The notes beneath the pieces were generated by a model that did no database searches, was not told the origin of the DNA, and saw only the letters and a program-made list of their open reading frames with translations. From assembly GCA_965220935.1 (NCBI GenBank), contig OZ244857.1:2440929-2504928 (forward strand): a stretch of DNA of 64,000 nucleotides. The letters are read 5' to 3'. A program made the translations under genes and the position numbers. Origin of the DNA: Rhodothermales bacterium (GTDB lineage: Bacteria; Bacteroidota; Rhodothermia; Rhodothermales; Bin80). Below are positions 3,151 to 21,500 of the stretch, piece by piece (within the stretch, counting starts at the first letter, position 1; each line of letters opens with the position of its first letter).

Positions 3151-6100
3151 ATGAATGTATTTGCTTTTCGGGAAAAGATAATTGCAGAATATGCCCGATT
3201 TTCTCGTAGTTTTACTAAGATTCTGTCCAAAGATATCCTTGATAAGGTCAATGAAATTTATGCTAAAGAGCATTTCTGGCCTCCTCCATTAGTTCAATTA
3301 AACCCTAACTTTGAATCAGGCGGATACATCAAACAACTGGTGAGCGATGGCCTCTTACATCCAGAATGTGATAATATTTTCCGAATCAGGAGTGAGGACG
3401 ATCTATTTGGTCAGCCGATTCGTTTGTATCACCATCAGAAAGAAGCCATCAGGATTGCAGCAAAACAGGAAAGCTATGTGCTAACAACTGGAACGGGGTC
3501 TGGCAAATCACTGGCTTACTTCATCCCGATTGTTAATGATGTGTTGCAACGAAAAGATGCAGGGAAAACTACCCACCAAATCACAGCAATTGTCGTCTAT
3601 CCGATGAATGCGCTATGCAACAGTCAACTTGAAGAACTTGAAAAATATCTTACCCTCGGCTATGGAAAAGGGCTTGAACCTGTGACATTCGCTCGCTATA
3701 CTGGTCAGGAATCTCAAGAGCAGCGGGCATCAATTGCTAAAAATCCGCCAGACATTTTATTGACAAATTATGTTATGTTGGAATTGATCATGACCCGATT
3801 TATGGAAACGGACAAGGCGATCCGTAATCATGCAGCAGGGTTACGATTTTTAGTACTTGATGAATTGCATACATACCGAGGGAGACAAGGAGGAGATGTT
3901 GCGATGTTGGTTCGCCGCGTCCGCGAGAGATTCAACGAAAATCTTATGTGCATTGGTACTTCTGCCACTATGATCTCAGAAGGTCTACATGCTGAGCGTA
4001 ATGAAGTGGTTGCAAGCATTGCCGGCCAAATTTTCGGAGTTTCTGTTAAACCTGATAATGTCATAACCGAAACATTAAAACTGGTCACACCCTCTTACCA
4101 ATCCACGTCAAATGCTGATCTCAGGGTATCTATTGAAAGAGGGATTCCTAACAATCTTAACTACGAGGAATTATCCAAGCATCCAGTGGCAAATTGGGTT
4201 GAGCACAATATGGGCATAGAAAAAATTGAGAATAAATATGCTCGAATCTTTCGTCCACTAAGTATTCATGAAGGATCCAAACGCCTCGCTAATGAAACTA
4301 ATTTGGATGTGAGCGTCTGCGAGAGATATCTAACAGATTTTCTTCTCATGTCTCATAAATGTCAGAATGAAAAAGGTCTTAGTCTCTTTGCTTTTCGGTT
4401 GCATCAATTCATTAGTAGAGCATGGAGTGTTTATACCACACTTGAACCTCCTGACACACGATATATAACCCTTGAAGGGCAGCAGTTCAAGCCTGGAAAT
4501 CGTAACCTTCCATTATATTCGCTCTGTTTCTGCAGGCAATGTGGACAAGAATATATTCCTGTATGGGCTGAGTTGGAAGGAAATGATCCTGTGTCGTTTA
4601 CCTCCAGAGACTTGAATGATCGTTTGAGTGAGGAGGAGGATCGGAAATGCGGATATCTAATGCCCGACACCTCATCATTGTTTGATTCCGTTAACATTGA
4701 AGATCAGTATCCTGAGAGCTGGGTTGAGGCACGGACAGGGCGAATTCAGCTCAAACCATCCTACAGGCGTTATGCTCCCACCAGTGTTCAAGTCAGCACA
4801 GACGGGAATGTGGTGCGACAGGGACTGCCTTCATGGTTTATCTCAGGATCATTTAGATTCTGTCTTAATCCAGAATGTGATGTTCATTATGTTGGAAATA
4901 TTCGTGAGCTTACTAAACTATCTGGACTTTCAAGTGAAGGAAGAAGTTCTGCGACGACTATACTGACGCTTTCTTCACTTAAGTATCTTATCGGGACGGA
5001 CTTGGATGACGAAACCAAGAAGATTCTTGCCTTTACTGATAACCGTCAGGATGCGAGTCTCCAGGCGGGACATTTCAATGACTTTATACAGATTCTAATG
5101 CTTAGAGGAGCATTACTCGCAGCGATCCAGAATGAGTCAGATGGAAGACTTACCGATAATTCTCTAACCCACAGGGTTCTTGATCACCTCCATTTGGATA
5201 CATTTGACTACGCTTCAAACCCCCAAGCAAAAGGGCCGCGTGCGGAAGAAACACTTGAGACACTCCGGTATATTTTAGGGTACCGGCTTTATTTTGATCT
5301 ACAGCGAGGATGGCGCATTACAAACCCAAATCTTGAACAACTGGGTTTATTAGAAATCAGATATCGAGATCTCATGGAATGTTGCCAAGATGAAGACGAA
5401 TGGCAGGCGCTCCATCCACTGATTGGCAATATGAAACCTGAATCGCGTCATGAGATTGCTCGAGAAATTCTTGATCTCATGCGAAAATCCCTCTGTATAA
5501 AAACGATTTTTTTAGACTCGGAACGACTAGAGAGAGTTGGTAACGCTAGTTATAATTTGCTCAAAGAACCTTGGGGACTATCTGAAGATGAGAAACTTCA
5601 GCCCATATCGTTTATGATCCCACGACCAAAAAGAAGGCAAGATATTAGATCTAAGAATCTGCATATCTCGCACCGCTCTGTGTTTGGAAAAAAAGTGAAA
5701 TCTAGAAATTTCTGGGGAACAGATAACCCTCACTACCCAGAAAAATTTGGAGAAGACCTCTACAACCGCATCATTGATGATGTGTTATCTGTTTTAACAA
5801 TTTATGGTTATGTAGATTCCTCAGATCTTGCTGGAAATGTCACAGGATATACTCTAAACAGTTCAGTTCTTGAATGGCATTATGTCAAAGAATTAAATGA
5901 ACCTCCATCCAACGAATTCTTCTATCAATTATATAAAAACGTGGCGAATTCTTTCAAAAATCATGACCGATTGTTTCATCAACTTGAAGCAGGTGAACAC
6001 ACTGCCCAGGTGGATTCTGAAACACGTAAGGAACGCGAATTTCGATTTCGAAAAGGGCTTGCAAGCGAGAAAGTCATTGATGGGAAATCAGAATCATCTG

Positions 6101-8391
6101 GGCTACCTGTTCTTTTCTGTTCTCCGACCATGGAGCTCGGAGTAGATATTGCCTCGCTGAATGCAGTGTACATGCGGAACGTTCCTCCTACGCCAGCCAA
6201 TTACGCACAGCGCAGTGGACGCGCTGGAAGGAGTGGTCAGCCCGCACTAGTAATTACCTACTGCGCAGCACGGTCTCCGCATGATCAATATTTTTTCTCC
6301 AATCCAACACGCATGGTCAGTGGCACTGTTACCCCTCCGAATATAGATTTAGCAAACGAAGATCTCATTCGTAGCCATTTGCAAGCAGTCTGGCTCACTG
6401 AGACAGGTATGAAACTGCCAAAGTCAGTATCCGAAATTCTTGATAGATCGGATAGTCCTGATCATCCTCTACGCGAAGAGATTGAGAAACAAATTCATTC
6501 ATCAAAGATTATATTTCGAGCGCAAACTCGTGCACATCGCATCCTTCAGACGCTGATATCTGCTCTCTCTCCTGAAGATGCTCCTTGGTATACAGATACT
6601 TGGTTGGAAAGTACTATACGAGCCGCAGAGTTACGGTTTAACGAAGCTTTTGATCGATGGCGTTCTCTCTATCGCGCAACAGTTATCCAAATGAGTTCTG
6701 CAGAAAACATCTTGAAAAATGCTGCTGCAACTGAGCAAGACCGGAGTGAGGCAAAGAAGCGACATGATCAGGCGTATACTCAACAAAATCTTCTTCTCGG
6801 AAAGAGAAACGTTACAGTTAACTCTGACTTTTATACCTACCGTTATCTGGCGTCGGAAGGTTTCTTGCCAGGCTATAATTTTCCTCGCCTACCCCTATTA
6901 GCATTTATTCCAGGCCGACGCAAAAAAGTTGGGCGAGATTCATTTTTAAGTAGACCTAGATTTCTAGGACTTTCTGAATTCGGCCCTCGATCAATCATAT
7001 ATCATGAGGGAAGCATATATCGGGTGCAACGTGCTATTTTATCACCACATGATGAGTCCGAGGTAACCATATCCTCCAAACTTCCAGTACAAACTACCAT
7101 GATCTGCAATACCTGCGGTTACGGCCATTTTGGAGATCTGAGTGACTCTGAGCGTTGCGTCAATTGCAATGAATTGCTTGGGGGAGGGCGCATGATCCGC
7201 AACCTTTATCATATTGAGCAGGTCTCTACTCAGAGAATTACACGCATTACTTCTGATGAAGAGGAGCGTAGGCGCCAAGGATACGAAATGATTACAACCC
7301 TTCAATTCAATCAGGACAATGGTCAAGCACGAAGAGAAATAATTACTATTGAGGATAATGATTCTCCTTTATTGGAACTCTGCTATGCTCCTTCTTCAAC
7401 ATTATGGCGTATTAATCTTGGATGGCACCGACGTAAAGAGAAATCTATAAACGGATTTAGTATAGATGCTAATTCTGGCGCATGGACTAAGGATTCTCAG
7501 GCTTTGACAGATGTTCAGGATGACTTAATCCAAGAGGGCAAAACGATTCAACGTATTAGTCCATTTGTGAAAGACACTCGAAATATACTGATTCTTCAAC
7601 CTCTGATTGAATTAGATGAAGTAGTTTTGGTCTCCATGCAATACGCCATCAAGCGGAGTATTGAGCATGAATTCCAACTTGAAGAGTCTGAACTTACTGC
7701 TGAACCTCTGCCCGATCGTCATCAACGTAACAATATTCTATTTTACGAATCTGCTGAGGGAGGGGCAGGGGTACTCGCCCACCTAACAGGTGATCTGGAC
7801 ACTTTTGCAAGAATAGCGAAAAGAGCGCTCAAAATCTGCCACTACAAATCTAAAACTGAAACATGGTCAGGCCTAGATGATCTTGAAAACATGGAGACAG
7901 ACTGCGAAGCTGGTTGCTATAAATGTCTGTTGAGTTACTACAATCAAATTGATCACGCACTGATTGATCGCAGAAATCAAAATCTACTTGACTTGCTTTG
8001 TAGACTGAGTGTCGCTTCCTCAAAAGCACAAACCAATATCACTAGTGCTGACAGCTATGAGGAACTTCTAAATGGTTCATCCTCCTCACTGGAAAAAGAG
8101 TGGTTGAATTTCATCCAATCAAATGGCTATCATCTTCCCGATAAATGCCAACCTTATCTGGAAGCCTATGAGACTCGTCCTGACTTCGCTTACACTAAAT
8201 ACCAAATATTGATCTATATTGATGGTCCGCATCATCAGGAAAAAACTCGTGTGGATGCAGATAAAATCATTGATCGGCGTCTTACAAATGGAGGTTATAC
8301 GGTGATCCGCTTTACTAGTAATCAAAGAGAATGGTTCAAAATTGTACATCAATATTCCTGGGTATTTGGATCAAAGCCATCTACGACATAG
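3151..8391 (+). CDS. Large DExH-box helicase fused to a DUF1998-type zinc module and a C-terminal DUF559/Vsr-like nuclease-fold domain (DrmA+DrmB-like fusion)
   Basis: 1746-aa ORF. Helicase motif I is LTTGTGSGKSLAY (~3490-3510), motif II is LVLDELHTYRG (DELH, 3859-3870), motif III is GTSAT (~aa 269), and the C-lobe carries TMELGVDI and QRSGRAGR (6208-6231, ~aa 1020), so the lobes carry long insertions. DUF1998-like features are a Cys4 ribbon MICNTCGYGHF...CVNC (from 7099), ILFYESAEGGAGVL, and CEAGCYKCLLSYYNQIDH (7903-7950). The tail (8092-8388) reads RPDFAY...ILIYIDGPHH...DADKIIDRRLTNGGYTVIRF, which resembles DUF559. Confidence 0.85.
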   Translation: MNVFAFREKIIAEYARFSRSFTKILSKDILDKVNEIYAKEHFWPPPLVQLNPNFESGGYIKQLVSDGLLHPECDNIFRIRSEDDLFGQPIRLYHHQKEAIRIAAKQESYVLTTGTGSGKSLAYFIPIVNDVLQRKDAGKTTHQITAIVVYPMNALCNSQLEELEKYLTLGYGKGLEPVTFARYTGQESQEQRASIAKNPPDILLTNYVMLELIMTRFMETDKAIRNHAAGLRFLVLDELHTYRGRQGGDVAMLVRRVRERFNENLMCIGTSATMISEGLHAERNEVVASIAGQIFGVSVKPDNVITETLKLVTPSYQSTSNADLRVSIERGIPNNLNYEELSKHPVANWVEHNMGIEKIENKYARIFRPLSIHEGSKRLANETNLDVSVCERYLTDFLLMSHKCQNEKGLSLFAFRLHQFISRAWSVYTTLEPPDTRYITLEGQQFKPGNRNLPLYSLCFCRQCGQEYIPVWAELEGNDPVSFTSRDLNDRLSEEEDRKCGYLMPDTSSLFDSVNIEDQYPESWVEARTGRIQLKPSYRRYAPTSVQVSTDGNVVRQGLPSWFISGSFRFCLNPECDVHYVGNIRELTKLSGLSSEGRSSATTILTLSSLKYLIGTDLDDETKKILAFTDNRQDASLQAGHFNDFIQILMLRGALLAAIQNESDGRLTDNSLTHRVLDHLHLDTFDYASNPQAKGPRAEETLETLRYILGYRLYFDLQRGWRITNPNLEQLGLLEIRYRDLMECCQDEDEWQALHPLIGNMKPESRHEIAREILDLMRKSLCIKTIFLDSERLERVGNASYNLLKEPWGLSEDEKLQPISFMIPRPKRRQDIRSKNLHISHRSVFGKKVKSRNFWGTDNPHYPEKFGEDLYNRIIDDVLSVLTIYGYVDSSDLAGNVTGYTLNSSVLEWHYVKELNEPPSNEFFYQLYKNVANSFKNHDRLFHQLEAGEHTAQVDSETRKEREFRFRKGLASEKVIDGKSESSGLPVLFCSPTMELGVDIASLNAVYMRNVPPTPANYAQRSGRAGRSGQPALVITYCAARSPHDQYFFSNPTRMVSGTVTPPNIDLANEDLIRSHLQAVWLTETGMKLPKSVSEILDRSDSPDHPLREEIEKQIHSSKIIFRAQTRAHRILQTLISALSPEDAPWYTDTWLESTIRAAELRFNEAFDRWRSLYRATVIQMSSAENILKNAAATEQDRSEAKKRHDQAYTQQNLLLGKRNVTVNSDFYTYRYLASEGFLPGYNFPRLPLLAFIPGRRKKVGRDSFLSRPRFLGLSEFGPRSIIYHEGSIYRVQRAILSPHDESEVTISSKLPVQTTMICNTCGYGHFGDLSDSERCVNCNELLGGGRMIRNLYHIEQVSTQRITRITSDEEERRRQGYEMITTLQFNQDNGQARREIITIEDNDSPLLELCYAPSSTLWRINLGWHRRKEKSINGFSIDANSGAWTKDSQALTDVQDDLIQEGKTIQRISPFVKDTRNILILQPLIELDEVVLVSMQYAIKRSIEHEFQLEESELTAEPLPDRHQRNNILFYESAEGGAGVLAHLTGDLDTFARIAKRALKICHYKSKTETWSGLDDLENMETDCEAGCYKCLLSYYNQIDHALIDRRNQNLLDLLCRLSVASSKAQTNITSADSYEELLNGSSSSLEKEWLNFIQSNGYHLPDKCQPYLEAYETRPDFAYTKYQILIYIDGPHHQEKTRVDADKIIDRRLTNGGYTVIRFTSNQREWFKIVHQYSWVFGSKPSTT

Positions 8392-8392
8392 C

Positions 8393-11236
8393 ATGGAGGT
8401 CGTGAACTTCAAGCCTGGAGATTTGGTGCGACTTCGCGGGCGAGAATGGGTTGTTCTTCCAGATCTTCGGGCTGATCTACTCAAAATCCGACCACTTGGT
8501 GGATCCGAGCGTGATGCAACTCTGATCTACCTGCCACTTGAGCCTGAAAAACCCGTTCATTCAACTTTTGACCTTCCCGATCCTGAACAAGTAGGTTCCA
8601 GAGATTCGGCTATGTTATTACGTGACGCTCTTCGTCTAAAACTGCGCTCTGGTGCGGGACCCTTTAGGAGTTTTGGCAATCTCAATTTTGAGCCCAGAAC
8701 CTATCAATTGGTCCCTCTATTGATGTCTCTTAAACAATCTCCCATTCGACTTCTCATCGCTGATGATGTTGGCATTGGAAAAACTATTGAAGCAGGCCTG
8801 ATCGTCAGGGAGATGTTTGACCGTGGTGAGATTGAACGATTTACGGTGATTTGCCCCCCACATTTGTGTGACCAATGGCAACGAGAGTTGGGAGAAAAAT
8901 TTCATTTTGATGCTGAGATCATCCGTACTGGAACAGCTGCTCGCCTGGAGCGAGGTTTACAACAAGATGAGTCTGTTTTTGAGGTCCATCCATTTACGGT
9001 CGTCTCTCTTGATTATATCAAATCAGATCGCAGAAGGACTGATTTCCTCCGTAGTTGCCCGAATTTCGTTATTGTTGATGAAGCTCATACCTGCGTTTCT
9101 GGAAATCCAAATACGCGTCATCAGCGCTACCAGCTCCTCAAAGGACTTTCTAGTGACACTCTGCGAAGCATCGTTCTCCTTACTGCAACCCCACATTCAG
9201 GCAATGATGTTGCATTTCATAATTTACTCTCTTTACTGAAGCCAGAGTTTGCGAAACTTGCTGAATTACCTCCGGGAGATCAACGACAATCCCTTCGTGA
9301 TAAGTTGTCCCAGCATTTTGTACAACGCCGCCGAGGTGATATTGAGGAATGGGAGGATCAGAATCAATTTCCAATCAGGGAAACCCGCGAGAGAACCTAT
9401 CAACTGACGGGAGATTGGGGAGTGTTATTTAGCGAGGTTCTCGTGTATGCTAGAACTATGGTTAAGCGTACAGAAGGAGGTACATCCCTTCAGCAGAGAA
9501 TGTCTTGGTGGGCTGCCCTTGCACTGTTGCGGTGTATTTCCTCTAGCCCTGCAGCCGCCCATATGTCACTGCGAACTCGCCTAAAAGCTACGATCGGAGA
9601 TACAGAAGATGAGCAAATAAATAATTTAGACAAGAACGTCCGTGACACAGTGATTGACGAGGCTGATAACGCTCTAACATCAACTGAAAGCATACCCGCT
9701 GGAACGGTTGAAGCACGAGAGGATTCCCGCATATTAAGCGAGCTAATTGAACGAGCGAAAGAACTACGTGGACCGACAATGGACCCTAAACTCTGTTCTC
9801 TCATCACTGAAATCAAAGCACTGATACGCGATCAATATAGGCCAGTTATTTTCTGCCGCTATATTGCGACAGCACATTATGTTGGGGAACAGTTGAAACA
9901 CGCTCTTCCCTCGCGAAGCACTCATGTCATCACTGTGACAGGAGAACTTGACCCTAATCAACGTGAAGCAGATATTGAATCGTTTCAGCATCTCTCCAGT
10001 GATATTCATCCTGTGCTAGTGGCTACGGATTGTCTTTCTGAAGGAATTAATCTTCAGAATTATTTTAACGCCATCGTTCACTATGATCTTGCGTGGAATC
10101 CAACGCGCCATGAACAGCGAGAGGGCCGTGCAGATCGGTTCGGGCAGACCTCCAAAGTAGTGCGTACGCTCCTGCTCTATGGAGAAAACAATCCCATTGA
10201 CGGTGCAATTATTCGTGTAATACTTAATAAGGCCGAACAGATCCGAAAAGAACTTGGCGTTCATGTTCCTTCACCCGTTGAAAATGACAAGCTTCTGGAG
10301 ACTATAATGATGGCTGCCCTTCTTCAAAGCGATGCATCTACTGCTCTGCCAGATCTTGACTTTGGAAATACTGAGGATGAGGTGGACATTGCCTGGGAAA
10401 GGGTTAAGCAAAAAATTTCCCGAACTGTATTTGCTCAACGTACCTTGAGACCTGATGATGTTATACCAGAATGGGAAAAGACCGTCTCCGTGTTAGGAGG
10501 ATCTCATGATGCAGAACGCTTCGTTCGTTCCGCTACAAATCGTCTCGGAGCCCCGCTCAATGCAGAAAAAGACTACTTTCAATTTCCCGTGAAGCATTTA
10601 CCAAAACAGCTCCAGGATCAATTAGGAGATATAGGATTCAAGGAAACGACGAAAATTACATTCTCCCAGCCACCACCGATGGGTGTAAACTATGTGCACA
10701 GAACTCATCCGATCATTTCAACGCTTGCGGATTATGTAGCAGAGCTCTCATTAGATAATAAGTGTGATATAGGTGCGAGATGTAGCGCTATGTTTACCAG
10801 AGATGTGACAGAGCGGACTGTTCTTTATCTACTCAGACTCCGTTTTCAACTTCATGTTGAGCAACGAAACAGCGACGGGAAATTCATCCCACTTAAATCC
10901 TTGCTTGCTGAAGAGTGTACAGGGGTTGCAATCCGCGGAATTGACTCGCCCGAAATCCTGACAGATCATGATGCTTTTGATCTTCTTTCTGCTGAACCAT
11001 CAAGCAACATGGATACAGGTCAGAAAACATTCATGATCAGACAAGTTTTGGGAGAACTTGATACCGTTGAGAGTATTTTTATCCGCATCGCTAACCAACA
11101 ATCTGAACAGCTTCTTAAAGATCACCGCAGGATTCGTGATGCCAGCGATATGAGAGGGTTAAGATATAATGTAGAACCCTGCCTACCGGTTGATAAGATT
11201 GGGATATATGTTTTTATGCCCTCTGTAAAGTTGTGA
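8393..11236 (+). CDS. SNF2-family helicase (DrmD-like)
   Basis: I place the start at ATG 8393 (MEVVNFKPGD...), 1 nt after the upstream stop (8389-8391). The track's 8342 start would overlap the helicase gene. Motifs seen are LLIADDVGIGKTIEAG (8762-8785), VIVDEAHTC (DEAH, 9076-9087), LLTATPHSG, VLVATDCLSEGINLQ and HYDLAWNPTRHEQREGRADRFGQ. Confidence 0.85.
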   Translation: MEVVNFKPGDLVRLRGREWVVLPDLRADLLKIRPLGGSERDATLIYLPLEPEKPVHSTFDLPDPEQVGSRDSAMLLRDALRLKLRSGAGPFRSFGNLNFEPRTYQLVPLLMSLKQSPIRLLIADDVGIGKTIEAGLIVREMFDRGEIERFTVICPPHLCDQWQRELGEKFHFDAEIIRTGTAARLERGLQQDESVFEVHPFTVVSLDYIKSDRRRTDFLRSCPNFVIVDEAHTCVSGNPNTRHQRYQLLKGLSSDTLRSIVLLTATPHSGNDVAFHNLLSLLKPEFAKLAELPPGDQRQSLRDKLSQHFVQRRRGDIEEWEDQNQFPIRETRERTYQLTGDWGVLFSEVLVYARTMVKRTEGGTSLQQRMSWWAALALLRCISSSPAAAHMSLRTRLKATIGDTEDEQINNLDKNVRDTVIDEADNALTSTESIPAGTVEAREDSRILSELIERAKELRGPTMDPKLCSLITEIKALIRDQYRPVIFCRYIATAHYVGEQLKHALPSRSTHVITVTGELDPNQREADIESFQHLSSDIHPVLVATDCLSEGINLQNYFNAIVHYDLAWNPTRHEQREGRADRFGQTSKVVRTLLLYGENNPIDGAIIRVILNKAEQIRKELGVHVPSPVENDKLLETIMMAALLQSDASTALPDLDFGNTEDEVDIAWERVKQKISRTVFAQRTLRPDDVIPEWEKTVSVLGGSHDAERFVRSATNRLGAPLNAEKDYFQFPVKHLPKQLQDQLGDIGFKETTKITFSQPPPMGVNYVHRTHPIISTLADYVAELSLDNKCDIGARCSAMFTRDVTERTVLYLLRLRFQLHVEQRNSDGKFIPLKSLLAEECTGVAIRGIDSPEILTDHDAFDLLSAEPSSNMDTGQKTFMIRQVLGELDTVESIFIRIANQQSEQLLKDHRRIRDASDMRGLRYNVEPCLPVDKIGIYVFMPSVKL

Positions 11237-11237
11237 T

Positions 11238-14200
11238 ATGGAAAAAATCAGAACTAACGATGTATTCACAGCCTTGAGGATTGAGGGTGGTATTTTACCT
11301 CCAGAATATCTCCAAAGGATCGCACAGCTTAATGCGTCTAATCAATCAGATCAAGATTATGATCTTTCTGAATCACTCATTCTTAAAGAAGAGATTGGTC
11401 GTTATTGGAAAATTGCTACTGACCTTTACGAGCGCTATAATCGATTGCGAGTGCGCCGAAGTACCAGACAGGAATCATCCGTAGTAGAAGATTGGTGTGT
11501 TCCTTTTATTCGGAATATTCTAGGATACGAAAATCTGATTTCAACGAGTGATGTTGAAATTAATGATCGTTTTTTCAAGTTAACTCATGTTACGCATAAT
11601 GGTGCTGTGCCTATTCTTTTGGTATCCCAGGACTCTCTGGACAAATCGTTTCCCGAACTTGGCTATGATGGCCGTAGGCAGGCAGCTCATGGCATTATGC
11701 AGGAATATTTGAATACTGAAGATGCTGCACTTTGGGGAATTATTTCTAATGGATCAAAGCTCCGAATCCTGCGCGATAATGTGAGCCTTACACGTCCTGC
11801 ATTCATAGAGGCCGACCTTGATCTCATTCTCTCAGAAGGACTTTACTCAGAATTTTCTGCCCTCTGGCTTGTAACTCATTCCACACGCCTCCGCCCAATT
11901 GATGATAAACCATCCCTCTGTATAATTGAAACTTGGCGCACAGAAGCTCAAGAAACAGGTCAACGTATCCGAGAAAACTTACGTGTAGGTGTCAGCGAAT
12001 CTCTTCGAAAACTTGGAAGTGGTTTTCTGCGTCATCACAAAAACGATCATCTCAGACAGGCACTTCGGAACGGTGAATTAACTCCAGAGGAGTATTTCCA
12101 GCAACTCCTTCAACTCATTTATCGGCTTCTTTTTCTTTTCACAGCTGAAGATCGTAACCTGCTACACACACCAGAGTCCACGAAAGAACAACGTGGAATC
12201 TACATAGATGGTTACTCTCTAGATCAGATACGCAACCGTACTCTTCGTGGCCGTCATTATGATCAATATGAGGACCTATGGAGGGGACTTCAAGTCACCT
12301 TCCATGCACTTGCACGAGGTTGCTCGGGCCTCGGACTTCCTGCTCTAGGAGGACTTTTTCAAAAGGCCAATGCATTTGATATTGAGCGCTCGGAAATTTC
12401 GAACGCTGATCTGCTTAAGGCCATTAAAAACATCTCTTTCTTTCAATCTAAGCGAAGTCTAACGCGAATCAATTACAGAGATATGGGCACAGAAGAGTTA
12501 GGATCTGTCTATGAAAGTCTATTGGAGCTTCAACCGTTTATTGACGTTGAAAACTGGGTTTTTGGCCTTGTTGGTGATGGGCCTGAAAAAGTCAAAGGAT
12601 CAAAACGAAAGCTCACTGGATCTTATTATACTCCCCCGTCACTTGTGAGCGAATTGATCAAGTCAGCATTGGAACCCGTTATTAAGCAGACTGTGGAAGA
12701 TAATCCAGAGGACCCTCGTGGTGCGATTCTTAAACTGAATATCCTTGATCCTTCGTGCGGTTCCGGGCATTTTCTTTTGGCGGCCGCCCATCGACTTACA
12801 TCCGAGATCGCTTATATAGATCATGGAACAATCTCACCTGATGAAACCACTAGACAGCACATTTTGCGGGAAGTTGTGCAGCATTGCATTTATGGGGTAG
12901 ACATCAATCCTCTTGCTGTTGAACTCTGCAAGACTGCTTTATGGATTGAGACCGTGGAGCCTGGAAAGCCCCTCACCTTTCTTGACTCCCACATTATTCA
13001 GGGAGACAGTCTGGTTGGGATTTTTGATCCATCAATTATGGAAAATGGAATTCCTAATAAGGCATATAATGCTCTAACCGATGACATTAAAGATGTTTGT
13101 CAAAACCTCAAAAAGCGAAATAATGAACCACATTTACCTAGTTTATTTGATGAGGATGCGGCCCTAGAAGTTGCCGTGACGACTATTGACTTAGATTCAA
13201 TGCCAGAGGATACTTTGGGAGATATTGAGCGTAAGTCTGCAGCATGGCAGGATATGCAGCTTGGAGACAGGTGGACGAATGAAAAGTTACGAGCCAATCT
13301 ATTTGTGGGAGCTTTTTTTGCTCCGAAAACATCTGAAACGATTAATCTTGTTCCTCTTTCAAATGATCTCGCTTCACTAGATGGTGACAGTAGTTCTCGG
13401 CGTCCGGGTGTTGATGAATTTATAAATAATTTGGCATTAAAACATTCGTTCCTTCACTGGCATCTTGCCTTTGCAGAGATCATGCAAGATGGTGGATTTA
13501 ACTGTGTCCTTGGAAATCCACCTTGGGAGCGAATTAAGCTACAGGAAAAAGAGTTCTTTTCTACACGATCAGAAGAAATTGCGAATGCTCCAAACAAGGC
13601 AAGTAGAGCTCAACTTATTAAAAAACTAAACAGTGAAGATGCCTCAGTTGCTGAAAAAGCCTTGTTTACTGAATTTCGGAGTGCAAAGCATAGATCTGAT
13701 GCCGTGAGTTTGTTTGCCCGAACAGGAGGACGTTTCCCATTGAGTGGAATTGGAGATCTGAATACTTATCCTCTATTTTCTGAGCTCTTTCTACAACTCG
13801 TCCATCCGCAGGGGCGAGCGGGTTTGATTGTTCCTACAGGTATTGCCACAGATGATACTACAAAAAAATTCTTTAACCATTTGGTTATCAATCACAGGCT
13901 CGTGAGTTTGTTTGACTTTCAAAACAGAGCTGGCATTTTCCCCGACGTTACAGGTTTAATGAGATTTTCTCTCTTAACCTTTAATGGAAATACAAATTCT
14001 GATTCTAAACCAGAATTTGCATTTTTTCTTCATCAAACGGAAAATTTAAAAGAAAAAGAACGACGAATTCAGCTATCAATAGATGATTTTCAGTTATTCA
14101 ATCCGAACACGCTGAACTGCCCCATCTTTCGCACTAATCATGACGTTAACATTGCGCGCAAGATGTTTAAGCGGGGTATCCTGTGGAAGGAAGCAATAGG

Positions 14201-15491
14201 AACTGAACCAGAGAAGAATCCCTGGGGGATCAGATTTATGAGTATGTTTCACATGTCCAATGATTCACATCTATTTAGAACCAGTGATGACTTGCTGGAT
14301 GAGGGGTGGGTGCTACACGGAAACATCTTCATGCGTGATAATGAACGATATTTGCCATTATATGAAGCGAAAATGCTTCACCAGTATGATCATCGTTTTG
14401 CCATGTTTGAAAAAACGGGAGGGGGCAAACCCAAAACTCGAGATCTCACCGTGGAAGAAAAAACAAACCATCATGCGGTTGCCCTACCAAGATACTGGAT
14501 TCCTGCTGCGGAAGTGGAACAAAAGCTTCTGGCGCAATTAAAAGGTCAGTCAGTCAGTCAGTCAGTCAGTCAGTCAGTCAGTCAGTCAGTCAGTCAGTCA
14601 GTCAGTCAGTCAGTCAGTCAGTCATGGACAAACTCAAACGGCTGGCGCGCTACTCGCTCTCAGGGATATCGGAAGTGCAACCAATCAACGAACGACAATA
14701 CTCTCCATGATTGCACCCGTAGGTCTAGGAGATACAGTGTCGGTGATCACCATTGGCTCATGGTTTTCAGAGATATTGCTGGAGCAACCGGTCGGAGAAC
14801 TTGCATCCATACAATTATGCCCTCCATGGGAATGAATCATCATGTTCCGTCTATGAGTATTGATTCCACAAACTGGCTTCAAGCGTTCCGAGATATTGGG
14901 AGGACGGGAGACAACCGTACCCTTATATCAAGTAATTTACCACAAAGTGGGATTGGGAATTCTGCTCCTATCATCAATTATGACCATGCACGAGCCGTGG
15001 CCTCTGCACTTATTCTGGCAAATATGAATAGCATTCCCCTAGACTGGGCAGCTCGCCTTTCAGTTGGCGGAACACATATGAGCTTTTTCATTGTGAAACA
15101 ACTCCCAGTCTTACCCCCTGATGTATTTCTGGAGATGAGTAGATGCAATTGCACATGGGTGCAATTAATTATTCCCCGCGTCTTAGAACTGACCTACACA
15201 TCACATGAAATGACTCCTTTCGCCAGAGATCTAGGATTTGAAGGTCCCCCCTTCACATGGGACGATGAGAAACGTCATTGCCTCAAATCTGAACTTGACG
15301 CAATTATTGCTCATATGTATGAACTTGACCGATCTGACCTTGAATGGATTATTGATCCGCCCCCACCAAGCTCATCTTTCCCAGTTCTTAAATCTCATGA
15401 AATTAAAGAATTCGGAGAGTATCGTACCAAACGCTATGTTCTAAAAGCTTACGATCAAATTCAACGCGGAGAGATACCTAATCTTCCCTAA
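11238..15491 (+). CDS. Large gamma-class N6-adenine DNA methyltransferase (Eco57I-like / DrmMI-like) containing an internal tetranucleotide repeat
   Basis: 1417-aa ORF starting 1 nt after the SNF2 stop. It carries GSYYTPPSLV, motif I ILDPSCGSGHFLLAA (~12741-12785) and motif IV GNPPWERIK (13512-13538). The order I then IV indicates gamma class. C-terminal blocks are LHQYDHRF, RDI..RT modules, GGTHMSFFIVKQLPVLPP, RVLELTYTSHEM and GEYRTKRYVL. The frame is maintained through the (GTCA)20 tract at 14545-14624. Confidence 0.85.
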   Translation: MEKIRTNDVFTALRIEGGILPPEYLQRIAQLNASNQSDQDYDLSESLILKEEIGRYWKIATDLYERYNRLRVRRSTRQESSVVEDWCVPFIRNILGYENLISTSDVEINDRFFKLTHVTHNGAVPILLVSQDSLDKSFPELGYDGRRQAAHGIMQEYLNTEDAALWGIISNGSKLRILRDNVSLTRPAFIEADLDLILSEGLYSEFSALWLVTHSTRLRPIDDKPSLCIIETWRTEAQETGQRIRENLRVGVSESLRKLGSGFLRHHKNDHLRQALRNGELTPEEYFQQLLQLIYRLLFLFTAEDRNLLHTPESTKEQRGIYIDGYSLDQIRNRTLRGRHYDQYEDLWRGLQVTFHALARGCSGLGLPALGGLFQKANAFDIERSEISNADLLKAIKNISFFQSKRSLTRINYRDMGTEELGSVYESLLELQPFIDVENWVFGLVGDGPEKVKGSKRKLTGSYYTPPSLVSELIKSALEPVIKQTVEDNPEDPRGAILKLNILDPSCGSGHFLLAAAHRLTSEIAYIDHGTISPDETTRQHILREVVQHCIYGVDINPLAVELCKTALWIETVEPGKPLTFLDSHIIQGDSLVGIFDPSIMENGIPNKAYNALTDDIKDVCQNLKKRNNEPHLPSLFDEDAALEVAVTTIDLDSMPEDTLGDIERKSAAWQDMQLGDRWTNEKLRANLFVGAFFAPKTSETINLVPLSNDLASLDGDSSSRRPGVDEFINNLALKHSFLHWHLAFAEIMQDGGFNCVLGNPPWERIKLQEKEFFSTRSEEIANAPNKASRAQLIKKLNSEDASVAEKALFTEFRSAKHRSDAVSLFARTGGRFPLSGIGDLNTYPLFSELFLQLVHPQGRAGLIVPTGIATDDTTKKFFNHLVINHRLVSLFDFQNRAGIFPDVTGLMRFSLLTFNGNTNSDSKPEFAFFLHQTENLKEKERRIQLSIDDFQLFNPNTLNCPIFRTNHDVNIARKMFKRGILWKEAIGTEPEKNPWGIRFMSMFHMSNDSHLFRTSDDLLDEGWVLHGNIFMRDNERYLPLYEAKMLHQYDHRFAMFEKTGGGKPKTRDLTVEEKTNHHAVALPRYWIPAAEVEQKLLAQLKGQSVSQSVSQSVSQSVSQSVSQSVSQSWTNSNGWRATRSQGYRKCNQSTNDNTLHDCTRRSRRYSVGDHHWLMVFRDIAGATGRRTCIHTIMPSMGMNHHVPSMSIDSTNWLQAFRDIGRTGDNRTLISSNLPQSGIGNSAPIINYDHARAVASALILANMNSIPLDWAARLSVGGTHMSFFIVKQLPVLPPDVFLEMSRCNCTWVQLIIPRVLELTYTSHEMTPFARDLGFEGPPFTWDDEKRHCLKSELDAIIAHMYELDRSDLEWIIDPPPPSSSFPVLKSHEIKEFGEYRTKRYVLKAYDQIQRGEIPNLP
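14545..14624 (+). repeat. Perfect tetranucleotide simple-sequence repeat (GTCA)x20 (equivalently an AGTC tract) inside the methyltransferase ORF
   Basis: Counted base by base: g14545 through a14624 is 80 nt, or 20 units with no interruption. It translates as G(QSVS)x6QS. The tract has no stop codon in any forward frame. Confidence 0.97.
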
Positions 15492-15794: not shown

Positions 15795-18539
15795 ATGCAC
15801 CATTTCGAAATGCCCATGAATCTAGGTAAGAAAAACACCGTTGTGGTTCTTGACCGCCACAGCTACATCACTCAACGTCTTAATTTTGCCCGTGAACATG
15901 CTCATGGAACCCAGATCATGATGATGAGTGACCTGGCCATCAGACTTGCGGGTGGATTCATTAAAACCGTTGACATTTCGTTTCTTCGGGCCACCATTCA
16001 TGAAACGATTCTTGATACAGATCTTGGAAGCTTAAATGTTATCAAAGATCTTCCAGGATTTGTGGCAGCAGCTACAAATACGCTTAACAAGGCCTGGCTC
16101 AGCGGCTATGATCTGAACCAATCACACCCTCGTGTGAAAGAGATTGCTCGTCTAAATGCTGCTGTGACCAAACGATTGCCACCTTCAATGCTACCACCTG
16201 CATCTCTCATTGCTGAAGCCTATAAGAACATTGCCCATGCACCTACAATTTTAGGTAGCATCAGATTCATGGGAATGACAGAACTCCACCCGTGCTGGTG
16301 GCCCCTGATTGAGCAATTGTGCGATCATGTACCTGTCACTTGGGTTGCAGGACCTCGACATATTCCTATGCACCTACCTAAGGGATGTGAACTGAAAACC
16401 GAATCTAAACAATGTCCACAAATCAAAACAATAAGCTGCTCAACCCCCTATCATGAAGCTATTGAAGCGATGCGATGGGCACGCCAACTAGTGACCCAAC
16501 AGGGAGTTCTTCCTCAAGATATCGCCATTGCTACAACGGATACAAAAATATACGATGACTTCTTTTTGGCATTACGGGAGGAATCTGACCTCCCCCTCTA
16601 TTTTGCGCATGGAATCAATGTCACCCAACCCGCCCATGGCCAATCAATTCTGGCACTAGCAGATCTTCTACTTCGTGGACTCTCCTCTGACCGGATTCAT
16701 CGACTGAGCTCTCATAAACAATTCTTAACCGATAAGATCAAAAACCTGAGAGATGCATGGTGGACGTTCACTATTAAAAATCATGACATCAATCTTCTCT
16801 CCCCAGATGAGTTAAAGATCAGGGCTCAAAAGTTAATTGCCGAAGAGAGGAAATCTGATTACTTACCGCTGGCAAACCTCCTCACAGAGATCAACAAGAA
16901 TACCAAATTCAGATTGGATCAAAACCCCGTCATGAGCTTGGAAGATCATATTGCAATGAAGCAGTCATGGCTTAAAACTGGAGAAAAACTCCTTTCAGGC
17001 GCAGCGCTTAAACTATGGAAAAATCTCCTCAAAGTTGCACCTGCTGCTTCACTTGAACAAGAAGCCCCTAGAATGTCAGTCCCTGAGCCTCCAGAATTCT
17101 GTGAACGCGTCGCATGGATGCCCGCTCAATCCCTTGCCGCTTCCCCACGCAAACACGCCCGACTTCTTGGGCTTAATTCATACCATTGGCCCCGAGAAAA
17201 CATCAAGGATTTACTATTGACCGGGCCTGGATTAGAAAATGCAAGTGAATCCTTAGATCCGCTGCCAGTAGCGGATGCCGATCAACGCGATTTTTCTACA
17301 ATCTGTAACACAACCTCTGAATCGGTCATTTGCTCTTTTTCTAGATACGATGCCGATGGAAAAGTGCTCGGACGTAGCCACCTGCTTACACCTGACATCT
17401 ACCATCCCACTTTAAAGTTATTTCGCAACTCTAGTCCTCCACATGCAATGAGCGAATCTGACTATCTGCTCGCTTCGCCCGATAAATTCAAACAGAATGA
17501 TCATGCGATCAGAGCGCTCCAATGTTGGACAAATTGGAACACATGTCACATTACCGAACACGACGGGTTGATCAAAGAAAATCACCCCCTGATTCGCCAT
17601 GTCCTCAAAAAACCCGCATCGGCCACTTCACTGACGCGCATGTTACGAGCCCCACTCGGATATATTTGGTATTATGGCTTGCATTGGCGAGGAGTGACTA
17701 CTCAGTCGGACCGCCTAACTTTAAGCCCTCTTAACTTCGGAATCTTGGTTCACCGTGCATTACAATCCATCCTTCAAACTCTTGAGTTCATCCGAAAAAA
17801 TTCTGAAGCAACCCCTATAAGTGATTCCATTATATCCTCGCTTGAATCTACATTTGAGATATGGGAATCTCTATATGGAACGCCACCAAAATTGCTGTGG
17901 GAAGAGACAAAAAAACAGATACAATCTATCACAACAACGGTGTTCAATGACTATCCATCAACAGAGAGTACATTATCGTTTTCTGAGGTTCCATTTGGGG
18001 GTAATAAATCAGAGATGAACCAAGATTCTCCGTGGGATTCAGACCGCCCCGTCACTCTTCCAGGAACAGACTTAAAAATTACTGGCTTCATAGACCGTAT
18101 TGACATTGATTACAATGACCTTCAAGCGCGTCTTACTGATTACAAAACAGGAAAACCAACGAAGAAGTCTGGGTTAAGAGGTGGACTTGAACTCCAAAGA
18201 TGCATTTACTATGTCGCTGCAAATTCACTATTACAGTCAGAGTTGGACATTTCTACCAGCCTCCTATATCTCCAGAATGGAGATCAGCTTACACTGCCCG
18301 AACCCCAACAAGAATTCATCAATGATCTATCAAAAAATGTAAATGAAGCCATTAAGAATTTCAACCAAGGTCATGTTTTCTTTGGGGCAAGCCCCAAACA
18401 AAAACATGATTTGGGTATCTATCGTGATCTGAAACTTGCTCTACCAGCCGATCTCCTTAGAGATTATGTTTCCAGAAAAGAGAAAGCACAAAACCAGAGA
18501 TTGGGACCTACGCTCCAAGAATTTTGGGAATCAGACTAA
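15795..18539 (+). CDS. AddB/RexB-like PD-(D/E)XK nuclease subunit (no Walker A, no Fe-S cysteine cluster)
   Basis: 914-aa ORF. The C-terminal RecB-family nuclease motifs are ITGFIDRIDIDYNDLQARLTDYKTGK and LELQRCIYYVAA (QxxxY). There is no GxxxxGK[ST] at the N-terminus, and only one Cys lies in the last 150 aa. It overlaps the next gene through a TAATG junction. Confidence 0.7.
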   Translation: MHHFEMPMNLGKKNTVVVLDRHSYITQRLNFAREHAHGTQIMMMSDLAIRLAGGFIKTVDISFLRATIHETILDTDLGSLNVIKDLPGFVAAATNTLNKAWLSGYDLNQSHPRVKEIARLNAAVTKRLPPSMLPPASLIAEAYKNIAHAPTILGSIRFMGMTELHPCWWPLIEQLCDHVPVTWVAGPRHIPMHLPKGCELKTESKQCPQIKTISCSTPYHEAIEAMRWARQLVTQQGVLPQDIAIATTDTKIYDDFFLALREESDLPLYFAHGINVTQPAHGQSILALADLLLRGLSSDRIHRLSSHKQFLTDKIKNLRDAWWTFTIKNHDINLLSPDELKIRAQKLIAEERKSDYLPLANLLTEINKNTKFRLDQNPVMSLEDHIAMKQSWLKTGEKLLSGAALKLWKNLLKVAPAASLEQEAPRMSVPEPPEFCERVAWMPAQSLAASPRKHARLLGLNSYHWPRENIKDLLLTGPGLENASESLDPLPVADADQRDFSTICNTTSESVICSFSRYDADGKVLGRSHLLTPDIYHPTLKLFRNSSPPHAMSESDYLLASPDKFKQNDHAIRALQCWTNWNTCHITEHDGLIKENHPLIRHVLKKPASATSLTRMLRAPLGYIWYYGLHWRGVTTQSDRLTLSPLNFGILVHRALQSILQTLEFIRKNSEATPISDSIISSLESTFEIWESLYGTPPKLLWEETKKQIQSITTTVFNDYPSTESTLSFSEVPFGGNKSEMNQDSPWDSDRPVTLPGTDLKITGFIDRIDIDYNDLQARLTDYKTGKPTKKSGLRGGLELQRCIYYVAANSLLQSELDISTSLLYLQNGDQLTLPEPQQEFINDLSKNVNEAIKNFNQGHVFFGASPKQKHDLGIYRDLKLALPADLLRDYVSRKEKAQNQRLGPTLQEFWESD

Positions 18540-21500
18540 TGCCCAAACAAAACACTTCCCTGGCTGATTCGCAGTCCAGAAATCGAGCCCTAACAGCGAT
18601 TGATGAATCCCTAGTTGTTGAGGCTGGCGCTGGAACCGGAAAGACAACGATTCTGGCAGGACGGATTGCGGTGATGCTAACTCTGGGAAAACCTCCTCAA
18701 CACATTGTTGCTGTAACATTCACAGAAGCCGCTGCCAGTGAGCTCCTTCTGCGGGTTCGAGAGTATGTACACCTTCTTCAAACAGGACAATTTCCGCCCG
18801 GGCTAAAAGCTGCCCTTGACGGAGAGCTGACTCCTAAGCAAAAGAAGAACCTTGAAAAAGCGGAAGACAACCTTGATGCATTAACATGCTCTACAATCCA
18901 CGGCTTCTGTCAGCGCGTGCTCAAAACGTTTCCTGTGGAAGCGAATATTGATCCTGGAGCAACCGTGATGGATGAAATGCAATCTAAAGGTGTCTTTCAT
19001 GAAGTCATGCACGGGTGGCTTAGACAAATTCTGTCTGATGATGATGGATACTTAGTTGCACAAATCTTGACGCGTAACAATCTTGATCATCTTCAAAAAA
19101 TCACGAACTGTGTGCGCATACATCGACAGGCTATCGCTAAACCGATGCATCAACTTGATGAGCGTCTCATAGAGTTCAGAGATTCACTCCAACAGTATGT
19201 GGATAACATCAGCAATATGGAGGAAAGCGTCCCCTCCGCGAAGGCAATTGCTAAAATTTTCATCCAATGGATTGAGATGTCTAAGATTACCCCAGAATCC
19301 AGCGTCAGCGAAATCATTGCATGCATTGATTTCGCCGCAAAAAATGAGCTCGTTACTCAAGAGAATTCCCGAACCACAGTGACGACCTACTATAATAGGT
19401 CAACTGCATCTGACTGGAATAAGGCATTGTCAGGAACAAAAAAATCCATCAACGAGGCCCGGAAGCGTGCAACCGATCTCTACAATCATGTCCGCGACCT
19501 ATGGAACAAGAGTATTCGTCATGAACTCTCTTCTGTGCTTCTTGGCCAACTCCTCGTTGACCTTAAGGGCTTATTAAAGCGCTACCAACAGTATAAACGA
19601 TCCGCAGGCCTCCTAGATTTTGATGACCTCATTATTGGAGTTTTAGAGCTACTTAGGCATCCTGATCATGGGCATGATGTTCGGCAAGCCCTCGCGAAGC
19701 AGTATCGTTATATCTTGGTTGACGAGTTTCAGGATACCGATGCTCAGCAAGCGGAAATTTTCTGGAGTCTTAGTAGCAGTGATCATCATGATGACTGGAC
19801 TAAACTTAAACCTCGTGCGGGCTCGCTATTTATCGTTGGTGATCCAAATCAATCAATATACAGGTTTCGAGGAGCGAACGTTGACATTTATTCAAAAGCA
19901 CGAAAAACATTCCCATCCAACAATGTGCTGAGCATTGTCACAAACTTCCGATCAACTGCCCCAGTCCTTGAGTTTATCAATGACAGATTCACACAACCGC
20001 TATCTGATGGTTACACCCATTTAATCCCCTTTAACCAGGAAACAAATGATTCACCATCAGTGGCGTCTATAGGATTTAATCCAAATGATGCAACAAATTC
20101 CAAGTTCCATGAAACCGAAGCGGTCGCTGTTGCCCAAGTATGCCATGAATTAATAACGTCACACTATCAAGCCAGCGATATTGCGTTGTTGACTCCGACT
20201 GGAACTGAGATACACTATTACGAACAGGCGCTACAAAATTTGGGAATTCAATTTGAAGCGCAGGCAGGCAAAAACTTCTTTCTTCTTCAAGAAATTCAAG
20301 ACTTAGTTGCATTAACGCTCATACTAGCGGATGGGAATAACAGTTTAGCCTTGGGGGCCTTCCTTAGAGGCCCACTGGTTGGAATCACCGACCAAGAACT
20401 CCTTGATTTAGCCTGGAAATTGCCACGAAATCCAGACCGACCTGATGAAACGGCTTCTCTGAATGCATGGATTGATGTGAATGTGATCAAACATGAAATT
20501 ATTTCAGATGTGATTATTAAACTCCAATCACTATTAAAGATTGCACATCGGTGCACCCCCTATCTGTTGTTAGCTTCTGCAGTAGACTGCTTCCACATCC
20601 GGGCACATCTAAGGCTTCGCTATGGCGATCAAGCGCCCCGAGCACTCTCAAATGTGGATCTCTTCCTTGAAAAAGCAAGGGCATACAATATCAGAGGTCT
20701 CAGGGATTTTGCCTCATCAATCTATCAAAAGTGGGGAGATGAAACCCCTACTCCCGAAGCGAAACCAGATATTTCACAGGACGCTGTTACGATCAGTACG
20801 ATACACAATGCAAAGGGGCTTGAGTGGCCAGTAGTGATCCCTATTAATACATGGAAGAGCCCAAGACCTGCAGATAACATCATCGTTGACCGATTGACCA
20901 GTGAGATATATGCATCCATATTCTCAATTCAGACCAGTGGCTTTGATGAAATCAAAGCACACGAGAATGAGCAGCTGCGAGATGAAAGGATCCGCCTGTG
21001 GTATGTCGCGGCAACCCGTGCTCGGAATCTGCTTCTGCTGACAGCACCAACAAACTTAGATCCTACTGCCACAGACAAGAGTTGGAGAGCAATCGTTGAT
21101 CTACGCACAGATGATCTACCATATTTCACTTCCAAGCGAATTCCAAAAAAAGATAATGAGGTGCTCCCTGAAAAGGTGAAGGTGCAAACATACGAGGATT
21201 TTATTGCCGAAGGTGATCAAATCAAACAGGTATCAAACCGCCTGAGATGGATCAGTCCAAGTAAAGATGAAGTTCCGCCTATTGATCTGGAGACCACAAT
21301 TATTGATGACGAGGATCACAGTATTGAAACGGCTGATATTCAAGGCAAAGGGTTCATTAGGGGATTAGTGATTCACCGATTAATTGAAGAAATAATCACT
21401 GGCGAGACCCATCGCGAAGATCTGTCATGCAGAGCACAGCAACTCAGTGACCAGATCCACACATCATTTGAAATTCATCCCCCTGTTGTAATGGATACTG

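Follow-up and report, generated by a model that had tools for sequence, protein, structure and literature searches.

Phase variation through simple sequence repeats (SSRs) is usually taught as a binary ON/OFF frameshift, the out-of-frame products of which are junk. In Haemophilus influenzae lic1A and lic2A, multiple start codons are located in different frames upstream of a (CAAT)n repeat. For Type III mod genes, we know of no conserved coding information described in the alternative frames. The present analysis concerns a 64,000-nucleotide (nt) stretch of DNA from a Rhodothermales bacterium (contig OZ244857.1, positions 2,440,929 to 2,504,928; hereafter the window), in which the putative adenine methylase gene armB contains a (GTCA)20 repeat. 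Downstream of this repeat are three tandem 40-amino-acid (aa) modules; copies 2 and 3 lie in the frame of the open reading frame (ORF), and copy 1 can be read only in the +1 frame. The favored interpretation, to which a probability of about 0.72 is assigned, is that the repeat and its modules serve as a conserved phase-variation cassette built into ArmB, the methylase of an ARMADA type I anti-phage operon.

The lic genes resemble armB in that translational signals are present redundantly, in more than one frame around an SSR, with more than one phase productive and a graded or multi-state switch. They differ in that the redundant elements of lic are N-terminal start codons for the same protein, whereas those of armB are C-terminal, with whole modules duplicated and different proteins encoded. 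In Type III mod genes, the out-of-frame states are null alleles with arbitrary tails, unlike the arrangement in armB. The likeness is that mod phasevarions also have tetra- or pentanucleotide repeats in a methyltransferase ORF, where slipped-strand mispairing is expected (PMC5909438). In SSR-containing Type I hsdS genes, such as that of NgoAV in Neisseria gonorrhoeae, a frame shift toggles the specificity polypeptide between full-length and truncated forms (Atack et al. survey, PMC7383803). As in hsdS, the armB repeat is located within the DNA-specificity part of a methylase system, and would switch the form of the protein rather than simply turning it ON or OFF. However, the truncated hsdS form is just the first target-recognition domain (TRD), with nothing duplicated. 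A candidate identification of armB as a Type I HsdS, a subunit with two TRDs and a truncated form active at another specificity, was rejected: the product is a single-chain, PglX-like methylase of 1417 aa, with the tract inside one recognition domain and the next piece of that domain present in two or three frame-staggered copies.

ARMADA type I is defined by a YprA-like DUF1998 helicase, a BrxHII/SNF2-like helicase, and a PglX-like methyltransferase, in this order (bioRxiv 10.1101/2025.09.15.676423). The same order is found in the gene trio at 3151–15491 of the window, and armB matches an ArmB in its class (gamma-class N6-adenine methyltransferase), its NPPW motif, and its PglX-like fold. Judged from gene order and sequence, the methylase is the ArmB of an ARMADA type I operon. 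ArmB of ARMADA types I and II, DrmMI of DISARM class 1, and PglX/BrxX of BREX share with armB the fold, the NPPW motif, and an operon with YprA/DUF1998 and SNF2 helicases. Programmed inversions are the known source of variation in DrmMI-like and PglX genes (PMC9881135), whereas armB would vary through an SSR with staggered modules. The ARMADA papers contain no mention of repeats, phase variation, or frameshifts in ArmB, and no description of frame-staggered paralogous modules behind an SSR was found in these papers or by full-text literature searches. SSR phase variation of a restriction or defence methylase is as such known. The alternative frames of armB carry conserved, selected coding information, in a defence methylase that is spread over many phyla.

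Module frames and the predicted products of each repeat phase

In frame 0, the SQSV peptide of the repeat is followed by a basic filler, RATRSQGYRKCNQSTNDNTLHDCTRRSRRYSVGDHH, then by WLMVFRDIAGATGRRT..., and then by WLQAFRDIGRTGDNRT...; the two frame-0 modules read WLMVFRDIAGATGRRTCIHTIMPSMGMNHH and WLQAFRDIGRTGDNRTLISSNLPQSGIGNS (Table 1). Translation of the filler DNA in the +1 frame gives ...AGALLALRDIGSATNQRTTILSMIAPVGLGDTVSVITIGS..., which is closed by a TGA, and DIGSATNQR and TTILSMIAPVGLGDTVSVITIGSWFSEILLEQPVGELASIQLCPPWE are peptides specific to this reading of copy 1. A profile hidden Markov model (HMM) of the module, trained solely on copies 2 and 3 of homologues, matches the +1 frame at 14641–14754 with 35 bits (i-E 1e-12), a match that by its score is far above chance. 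The repeat has no stop codon in any frame (SQSV, QSVS, or VSQS). Copies 1 and 2 have a spacing of 107 nt (3k-1) and copies 2 and 3 one of 120 nt, and DNA matches between the copies extend over just 12–13 nt. No repeat or slippery tract separates copies 1 and 2, on which ground programmed ribosomal frameshifting and a second switch at this place were rejected.

An earlier note on this sequence had reported three tandem modules with copy 1 in the +1 frame only, and all of its strings and coordinates were reproduced. It had taken the Trp of an NGW sequence as the one that should precede the +1 copy; this residue is not a conserved part of copy 1, as most orthologous copy 1 sequences start with GSQLALR. 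It had also described copy 1 as the closest to the family pattern, which is correct in that copy 1 has the best ATNxRT motif in this genome, whereas clade-wide it is copy 3 that is nearest to the single-module family.

The armB gene was rebuilt in silico with n = 16 to 24 GTCA units. When n mod 3 = 2, the product is the long form of 1413–1421 aa (1417 aa at n = 20, the assembled number). When n mod 3 = 1, the product has 1193–1201 aa (the 1197-aa form), ends 26 residues past copy 1, and is without the last ~235 aa; this bears out the earlier prediction that 19 or 22 units would bring copy 1 into frame and then lead to the stop at 14833–14835. When n mod 3 = 0, a product of 1154–1162 aa (the 1158-aa form) without any module results. 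An altered repeat number thus alters the product in silico, as expected of a phase-variable gene. In addition, the tract has the properties of an SSR contingency locus, being a long, perfect, intra-ORF repeat with a unit length not divisible by three, and it is exceptional in its genome: across 4.08 Mb, no other SSR has a unit of at least 4 nt and 5 copies or more. The number of GTCA units may vary within the species.

In the proposed mechanism, slipped-strand mispairing would alter the number of GTCA units, and n mod 3 would set the frame in which the ribosome leaves the repeat. A 40-aa piece of the recognition domain would be supplied downstream as three tandem, diverged, frame-offset copies. 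In frame 0 (n = 17, 20, 23, and so on), copy 1 would be read as a disordered filler, followed by copies 2 and 3 and the C-terminal domain, to give the 1417-aa enzyme. In frame +1 (n = 19, 22, and so on), copy 1 would be read properly and translation would stop 26 codons further on, to give the 1197-aa, module-capped form. In frame +2 (n = 18, 21, and so on), a stop inside copy 1 would give the 1158-aa form without a module.

Conservation and selection across related loci

A protein search and alignment yielded about 45 homologues (~50% identity), all of which contain a similar filler and a pair of in-frame modules spaced by 40 residues. At the site of the repeat, protein homologues have low-complexity peptides with a period of 4, 5, or 8 residues (SRAEQ, RPDQT, QAKPS, NRTEQ, RRTAEPPN, PPPP), which implies DNA repeats with units that are not a multiple of three. 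The DNA of 80 related loci was then scanned in each of the three frames to map the module and its flanking domains. In type A (17 loci, including the window), the module frames relative to the C-terminal domain are (+1,0,0). In type B (5 loci), they are (+2,+1,0), with one module per frame; in loci of this type both short products would be capped. About 45 more distant relatives have no repeat, a ~160-nt gap, and, according to the module HMM run in three frames, just one in-frame module between the flanking domains; one subgroup has a helical insert instead. The expectation in the earlier note of a single module in this methylase family therefore holds for these more distant relatives and fails for the clade with SSRs.

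The staggered layout was seen in about 25 loci of at least 8 phyla, mostly in metagenome-assembled genomes (MAGs) of symbionts, and the bacteria that carry the cassette are largely sponge- and coral-associated. An SSR is located directly upstream of the modules in every multi-module locus. These repeats are mutually unrelated, with unit lengths of 1, 4, 5, 7, 8, or 10 nt: tetranucleotides (GTCA, CAAC, CGAC, GACC, CAGA, AGAC), pentanucleotides (GCCGA, GAGCC, CAGGA, TCGGG, GAGCA), heptanucleotides (CCAGCGG, ACAGAGG), two 8-mers, two 10-mers, a poly-C29, and G9–C11 runs. Even congeners of the window's genome have (CAAC)37.5, (ACAGAGG)21.9, and G9 at this site, and a genome of the same family has a 10-mer in 8.6 copies at the switch site. 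GCCGA repeats in related loci have 13.6, 30.4, 31, and 38.8 copies. Phases 0, 1, and 2 occur about equally often in the assemblies (type A loci: 6/5/6). The differing copy numbers, the occurrence of all three phases, and the other units of congeners are indirect evidence that the repeat number varies.

Short forms are also found as natural ORFs. A profile of the +1-frame copy 1 and its tail was searched against 1.84 billion representative proteins and gave 425 matches, with 19 protein clusters at E <= 1e-10, and nearly all of the best matches sit at the extreme C-terminus. One natural short ORF encodes a 1224-aa protein in which (GQDRT)n leads straight into copy 1 and then to a stop; in a short type B ORF, which encodes 1013 aa, (SRAEP)n leads through the filler into copy 2 and then to a stop.

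A tree built from the 655 residues that precede the tract places the loci with an SSR and multiple modules in one clade (Shimodaira–Hasegawa-like approximate likelihood ratio test [SH-aLRT] 100), within which types A and B are intermixed. The clade includes Pseudomonadota, Rhodothermota, Acidobacteriota, Gemmatimonadota, Bacteroidota, Actinomycetota, Chloroflexota, and Binatota, and homologous loci share about 50–60% protein identity across these phyla, which number at least 8. One further type B locus, L049, branches within the single-module clade. L049 and L065 (Spongiisociaceae/Dehalococcoidia MAGs) have an SSR and staggered modules in a different gene order, with armC downstream, which points to either a second origin or transfer of the C-terminal cassette by recombination. 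Within the genus, 6 of 24 genomes (G000–G023) have matches to the query region: the SSR version is present in four (G000, G002, G004, and G008), and G013 and G023 have single-module, repeat-free relatives at 34–36% identity. The SSR version is also present in G024, which belongs to the same family only. The patchy distribution within the genus suggests a mobile island.

The divergence of the copies bears directly on whether copy 1 is read as protein. Mean pairwise divergence at codon positions 1, 2, and 3 is 0.47, 0.30, and 0.57 for copy 1 in its own +1 frame, 0.50, 0.34, and 0.60 for copy 2 in frame 0, and 0.41, 0.30, and 0.67 for copy 3 in frame 0. Copy 1 therefore has the same pattern as the coding copies 2 and 3, and the type B copies are alike in this respect. 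For copy 1, the ratio of nonsynonymous to synonymous differences (pN/pS), from Nei–Gojobori counts of the less diverged pairs, is 0.53 when the DNA is read in the +1 frame, against 0.80 for the +2 frame and 1.29 for the ORF frame; for copy 3, used as the control, it is 0.32 in its own frame and 1.20 and 1.39 in the shifted frames. In type A loci, the identity of copy 1 is 42% in the +1 frame (BLOSUM 1.86) and 22% in the ORF frame (BLOSUM 0.46). The alignment of homologues, which the earlier note had proposed as a means to identify the conserved frame, thus indicates the +1 frame rather than the ORF frame. Conservation of the filler, which the same note had named as a finding that would speak against an out-of-frame copy, is present weakly, as a by-product of conservation in the +1 frame.

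Stop codons are distributed in a corresponding pattern. Type A copy 1 has 0 stops in the +1 frame, 0 stops in 612 aligned codons of the ORF frame from 17 loci, and 46 stops in the +2 frame. In type B, copy 1 has no stops in any of the three frames, the +1 and 0 frames of copy 2 are open and its +2 frame has 24 stops, and for copy 3 frame 0 is the sole open frame. This is the pattern expected if each frame stays open until its module is read and may close afterwards, and the alternative frames do close no more than 28 codons past their module. In 11 of the 17 type A loci, the +2 stop is found at the same position of copy 1. By these measures, each copy evolves as a coding sequence in its own frame, copy 1 is under purifying selection in the +1 frame, and the filler is maintained without stops, which lets translation of the long isoform continue into copies 2 and 3. 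With selected modules in the alternative frames, the switch would not be a plain ON/OFF device, but one that chooses between the long form and short forms, of which one or two are module-capped. Of the three readings between which the earlier note had not chosen, the one in which tract length determines which module is exposed is supported by this selection, by the conserved staggered layout, and by the pattern of open and closed frames.

Each type A copy has its own consensus across orthologous loci, namely GSQLALRxITRATNERTGIxxMIPxxGLGxSG for a1, WLxxFRDIxRxTDQRT...TAMxN..P for a2, and WLQAFRxITxxTNERTLI....PxxGxGNSAPxIDY for a3, and an orthologous copy 1 is present in 16 loci other than the window. 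Gene conversion (concerted evolution) as the source of copy 1 conservation was rejected on this basis. In cross-comparisons, a1 pairs with b2 and a2 pairs with b3, and b1 resembles a duplicate of b2, which indicates that types A and B represent one staggered array in shifted registers.

Such register shifts would also suit the view that the out-of-frame copies are unused as protein, and are leftover tandem duplications of 3k-1 nt that serve as substrates for frame-relocking deletions or indels. The unequal spacing of the copies (107 and 120 nt) is compatible with this view, as is protein P0042, which lacks the repeat, carries copy 1, a truncated copy 2, and copy 3 in a single frame, and is apparently a locked three-module long form. 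The similarity between copies at the DNA level is, however, too low for efficient recombination, and neither the protein-level purifying selection on copy 1 in its own frame, with a copy-specific consensus maintained across phyla, nor the precise pattern of stop-free and stop-rich frames is expected of unused DNA. We consider this alternative to be quite improbable.

Another alternative is that only the long form matters, in a plain ON/OFF gene in which the offset of copy 1 arose from compensating indels, or in which it reflects a sequencing or assembly error; the earlier note had listed both origins. The filler frame has no stop for about 40 codons, as would be the case after compensating indels, repeats are error-prone in assemblies, and two loci (L013 and L084; see below) look broken. 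Decay of a redundant copy is contradicted by the recurrence of the same offset in 17 loci with an orthologous signature in copy 1, by the lower pN/pS in the +1 frame than in frame 0, and by the absence of stops in just those frames that must be read, with many stops in the dispensable frame. An artefact is contradicted by the independence of the assemblies: the arrangement recurs in more than 25 of them, and the 17 with the type A offset include many complete long-read chromosomes, to which dozens of metagenome proteins can be added. Nor are the homologous loci copies of one recent sequence, given their level of protein identity and phylum-level spread. Both versions are therefore highly implausible.

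The position of the +1 stop bears on a third alternative. Among the 17 type A loci, 11 have this stop as an (A/G)TGA over [MV][SN] at one and the same module position, as have 3 of the 5 type B loci, and it there overlaps an ATG or GTG; in the window, the TGA at 14833–14835 overlaps a frame-0 ATG at 14832–14834 (ATGA). In a split enzyme, termination in the +1 frame at (A/G)TGA would be coupled to re-initiation at the frame-0 ATG/GTG, and an N-fragment capped by copy 1 would reassemble with a C-fragment consisting of copy 3 and the C-terminal domain. A type A C-fragment would indeed hold a complete module and domain. However, [MV][SN] is a normal feature of the module at this position and the overlap may be its by-product, no Shine-Dalgarno-like sequence is present ahead of 14832, and an earlier stop is found in six type A loci. 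In type B, the +2 stops fall inside 'ALRLIT' of copy 2 without a conserved start codon, and a restart after the +1 stop would give a domain without strands 1–3. A split enzyme is therefore an unlikely explanation.

Two abutting SSRs were observed in L018 (9340–9400; protein P0041), where a GTCA-type tract coding SQSV is followed by a CAGA tract coding DRQT. This looks like a snapshot of the replacement of one SSR by another at a fixed position.

Predicted structure and possible roles of the short forms

Residues 438–1417 of the long isoform were modelled with AlphaFold2 (AF2) from a 50-sequence alignment (predicted local distance difference test [pLDDT] 85, predicted TM-score [pTM] 0.84). The repeat peptide, the filler, and copy 2 (residues ~1106–1208) have pLDDT values below 50, with a range of 29–52 for copy 2, which is consistent with a flexible linker in the repeat region. 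Copy 3 is predicted to form four beta-strands (pLDDT 78–96) that are continuous with the C-terminal domain, itself all-helical with pLDDT above 90. Foldseek matches of the armB model are BrxX/PglX (9ewz, 8q56, 8c45; E 1e-13), CamA, M.BseCI, M.TaqI, and MmeI, which are gamma-class adenine methylases with a C-terminal DNA-recognition domain. Taken together with the strands of copy 3, these matches indicate that the module is the central strand set of the DNA-recognition domain. In the model, the PRYW strand of the TaqI/PglX-like recognition domain is connected to the module by a loop, and it is this loop that holds the SSR. A profile of the C-terminal region gave only weak methylase-domain matches when compared with the sequences of solved structures.

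All genes of E. coli ARMADA II, including armB with its NPPW motif, are needed for defence, and it is only for this system that phage protection has been experimentally shown (bioRxiv 10.1101/2025.09.15.676423; PMC13463889). By analogy with this requirement for ArmB, the long form is likely to be the fully active state. The short forms are presumed to be stable, and the forms are presumed to differ in methylation, defence, or specificity. A short form might act as an inactive stable scaffold, in an altered mode, or as the partner of a separately initiated C-fragment. Extended in this direction, the cassette would be a three-state switch encoded in overlapping frames, each phase of which yields a distinct, selected ArmB proteoform with a different activity; this extension is tentative, and somewhat more doubtful than probable. 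For example, the long form might provide methylation and defence, the uncapped form might be null, and the capped short form might be a stable scaffold that holds an ArmA/ArmC complex silent, or might change the target or mode.

Several observations weigh against the phase-variation cassette or its functional extension. When a natural short isoform (L002, phase +1) was modelled with AF2, the copy 1 strands had pLDDT values of only 52–55 and the upstream beta part lost confidence; a stably folded short form is thus not supported structurally. Truncation cuts the recognition domain mid-way, which makes an active methylase unlikely in the short form. The in-frame copy 2 of type A is disordered in the model, which leaves it without an evident role. 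L013 (9480–10220) and L084 (G024:C1, minus strand, 2686–3009) have module frames of (0,+2,0), so that the C-terminal domain cannot be reached in any phase, and in L013 an insertion of ~400 nt separates copy 2 from copy 3. Both alleles have probably decayed or become 'locked short', and some copies of the cassette therefore seem to decay. Two exact-pattern scans of metagenome contigs found no conspecific contig with another repeat number. Finally, the loci are related by descent and transfer, so that locus counts overstate their independence, and the phases of homopolymer loci in MAGs may include assembly errors.

If the short forms are functional, the cassette would be a compact means of encoding two or three proteoforms per gene through a hypermutable choice of frame, and would provide a handle on the switching of ARMADA, DISARM, and BREX-type systems without autoimmunity. 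If the three-state switch is correct, duplication of modules into other frames would be a general trick that gives meaning to 'OFF' phases.

Operon context and other features of the window

The armC-like, armA-like, and methylase genes (Table 1) are conserved as a trio in almost all homologous loci. The armC-like protein has Pfam matches to DEAD, Helicase_C, MZB (DUF1998), and DUF559, and PADLOC matches to DruE (1.6e-94) and, far less well, to DrmA (6e-14). PADLOC matches of the armA-like protein are DpdE (2e-196) and DrmD (8.5e-83). The armB product has the Pfam domains Eco57I (2.8e-19), N6_Mtase, and MmeI_Mtase, its best PADLOC matches are DrmMI (1.5e-66) and Type IIG methylases, and its translation contains the NPPW motif of gamma-class methylases (GNPPWERIK). 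DISARM class 1 requires separate DrmA and DrmB proteins and the phospholipase D (PLD) nuclease DrmC. Assignment of the operon to this class was rejected, as the helicase and DUF1998 are fused in one protein of 1746 aa and the operon has no PLD gene.

Table 1. Features of the armB operon and of the repeat–module region; coordinates are positions in the window.
Feature	Position	Strand	Remarks
armC-like gene: YprA/DruE-like DExH helicase, MZB (DUF1998), DUF559 (Vsr-like) tail	3151..8391	+	1746 aa; Pfam, PADLOC
armA-like gene: SNF2/BrxHII/DrmD-like helicase	8342..11236	+	Pfam SNF2-rel_dom, Helicase_C; PADLOC
armB: predicted PglX/DrmMI-like gamma-class N6-adenine DNA methyltransferase	11238..15491	+	1417-aa long isoform as assembled, n = 20
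(GTCA)x20 simple sequence repeat	14545..14624	+	Tandem Repeats Finder (TRF), 100% perfect; downstream frame set by n mod 3
Frame-0 'filler' (copy 1 DNA out of frame)	14625..14744	+	WTNSNGWRATRSQGYRKCNQSTNDNTLHDCTRRSRRYSV
Module copy 1, +1 frame only (codon starts = 1 mod 3)	14641..14754	+	AGALLALRDIGSATNQRTTILSMIAPVGLGDTVSVITI
TGA stop, +2 frame	14708..14710	+	gives 1158-aa product without module when n mod 3 = 0
Module copy 2, frame 0	14745..14861	+	GDHHWLMVFRDIAGATGRRTCIHTIMPSMGMNHHVPSMSI; HMM 52-60 bits
TGA stop, +1 frame	14833..14835	+	ends 1197-aa short isoform, 26 codons past copy 1
Module copy 3, frame 0	14862..14981	+	DSTNWLQAFRDIGRTGDNRTLISSNLPQSGIGNSAPIINY; HMM 58-65 bits
Rest of target-recognition domain and helical C-terminal domain	14982..15488	+	'dn' HMM; reached in frame 0 only

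An AddB-like and AddA-like pair (PD-(D/E)XK and UvrD) is located downstream of armB at 15795–21820. Such a pair is found beside the operon in 0 of the 80 homologous loci, and it is therefore regarded as a neighbour rather than as part of the system.

A 42-aa ORF at 14707–14835 (plus strand), MIAPVGLGDTVSV...PPWE, is an internal-Met remnant of the +1-frame copy 1. Many 42-aa twins of this ORF exist among public 'proteins' (P0141, P0154, P0162, and others), and these are gene-calling or annotation ghosts of the cassette. In addition, six short-read MAG contigs (L007, L011, L016, L035, L051, and L062) end at the repeat, with matches that stop at query residues ~1097–1112, which indicates that the armB family is systematically fragmented in metagenome assemblies. 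Genes of this kind should accordingly be annotated with caution, as databases list them in split or truncated form or assign 42-aa ghost ORFs to them.

In the genome of the window (G000), 134 homopolymer tracts of at least 9 nt are present, nearly all of G or C and the longest of 19 nt; one example inside the window is a poly-C of 12 nt at about 31800–31811. These tracts suggest a wider poly-G/C 'phasome' in the symbiont.

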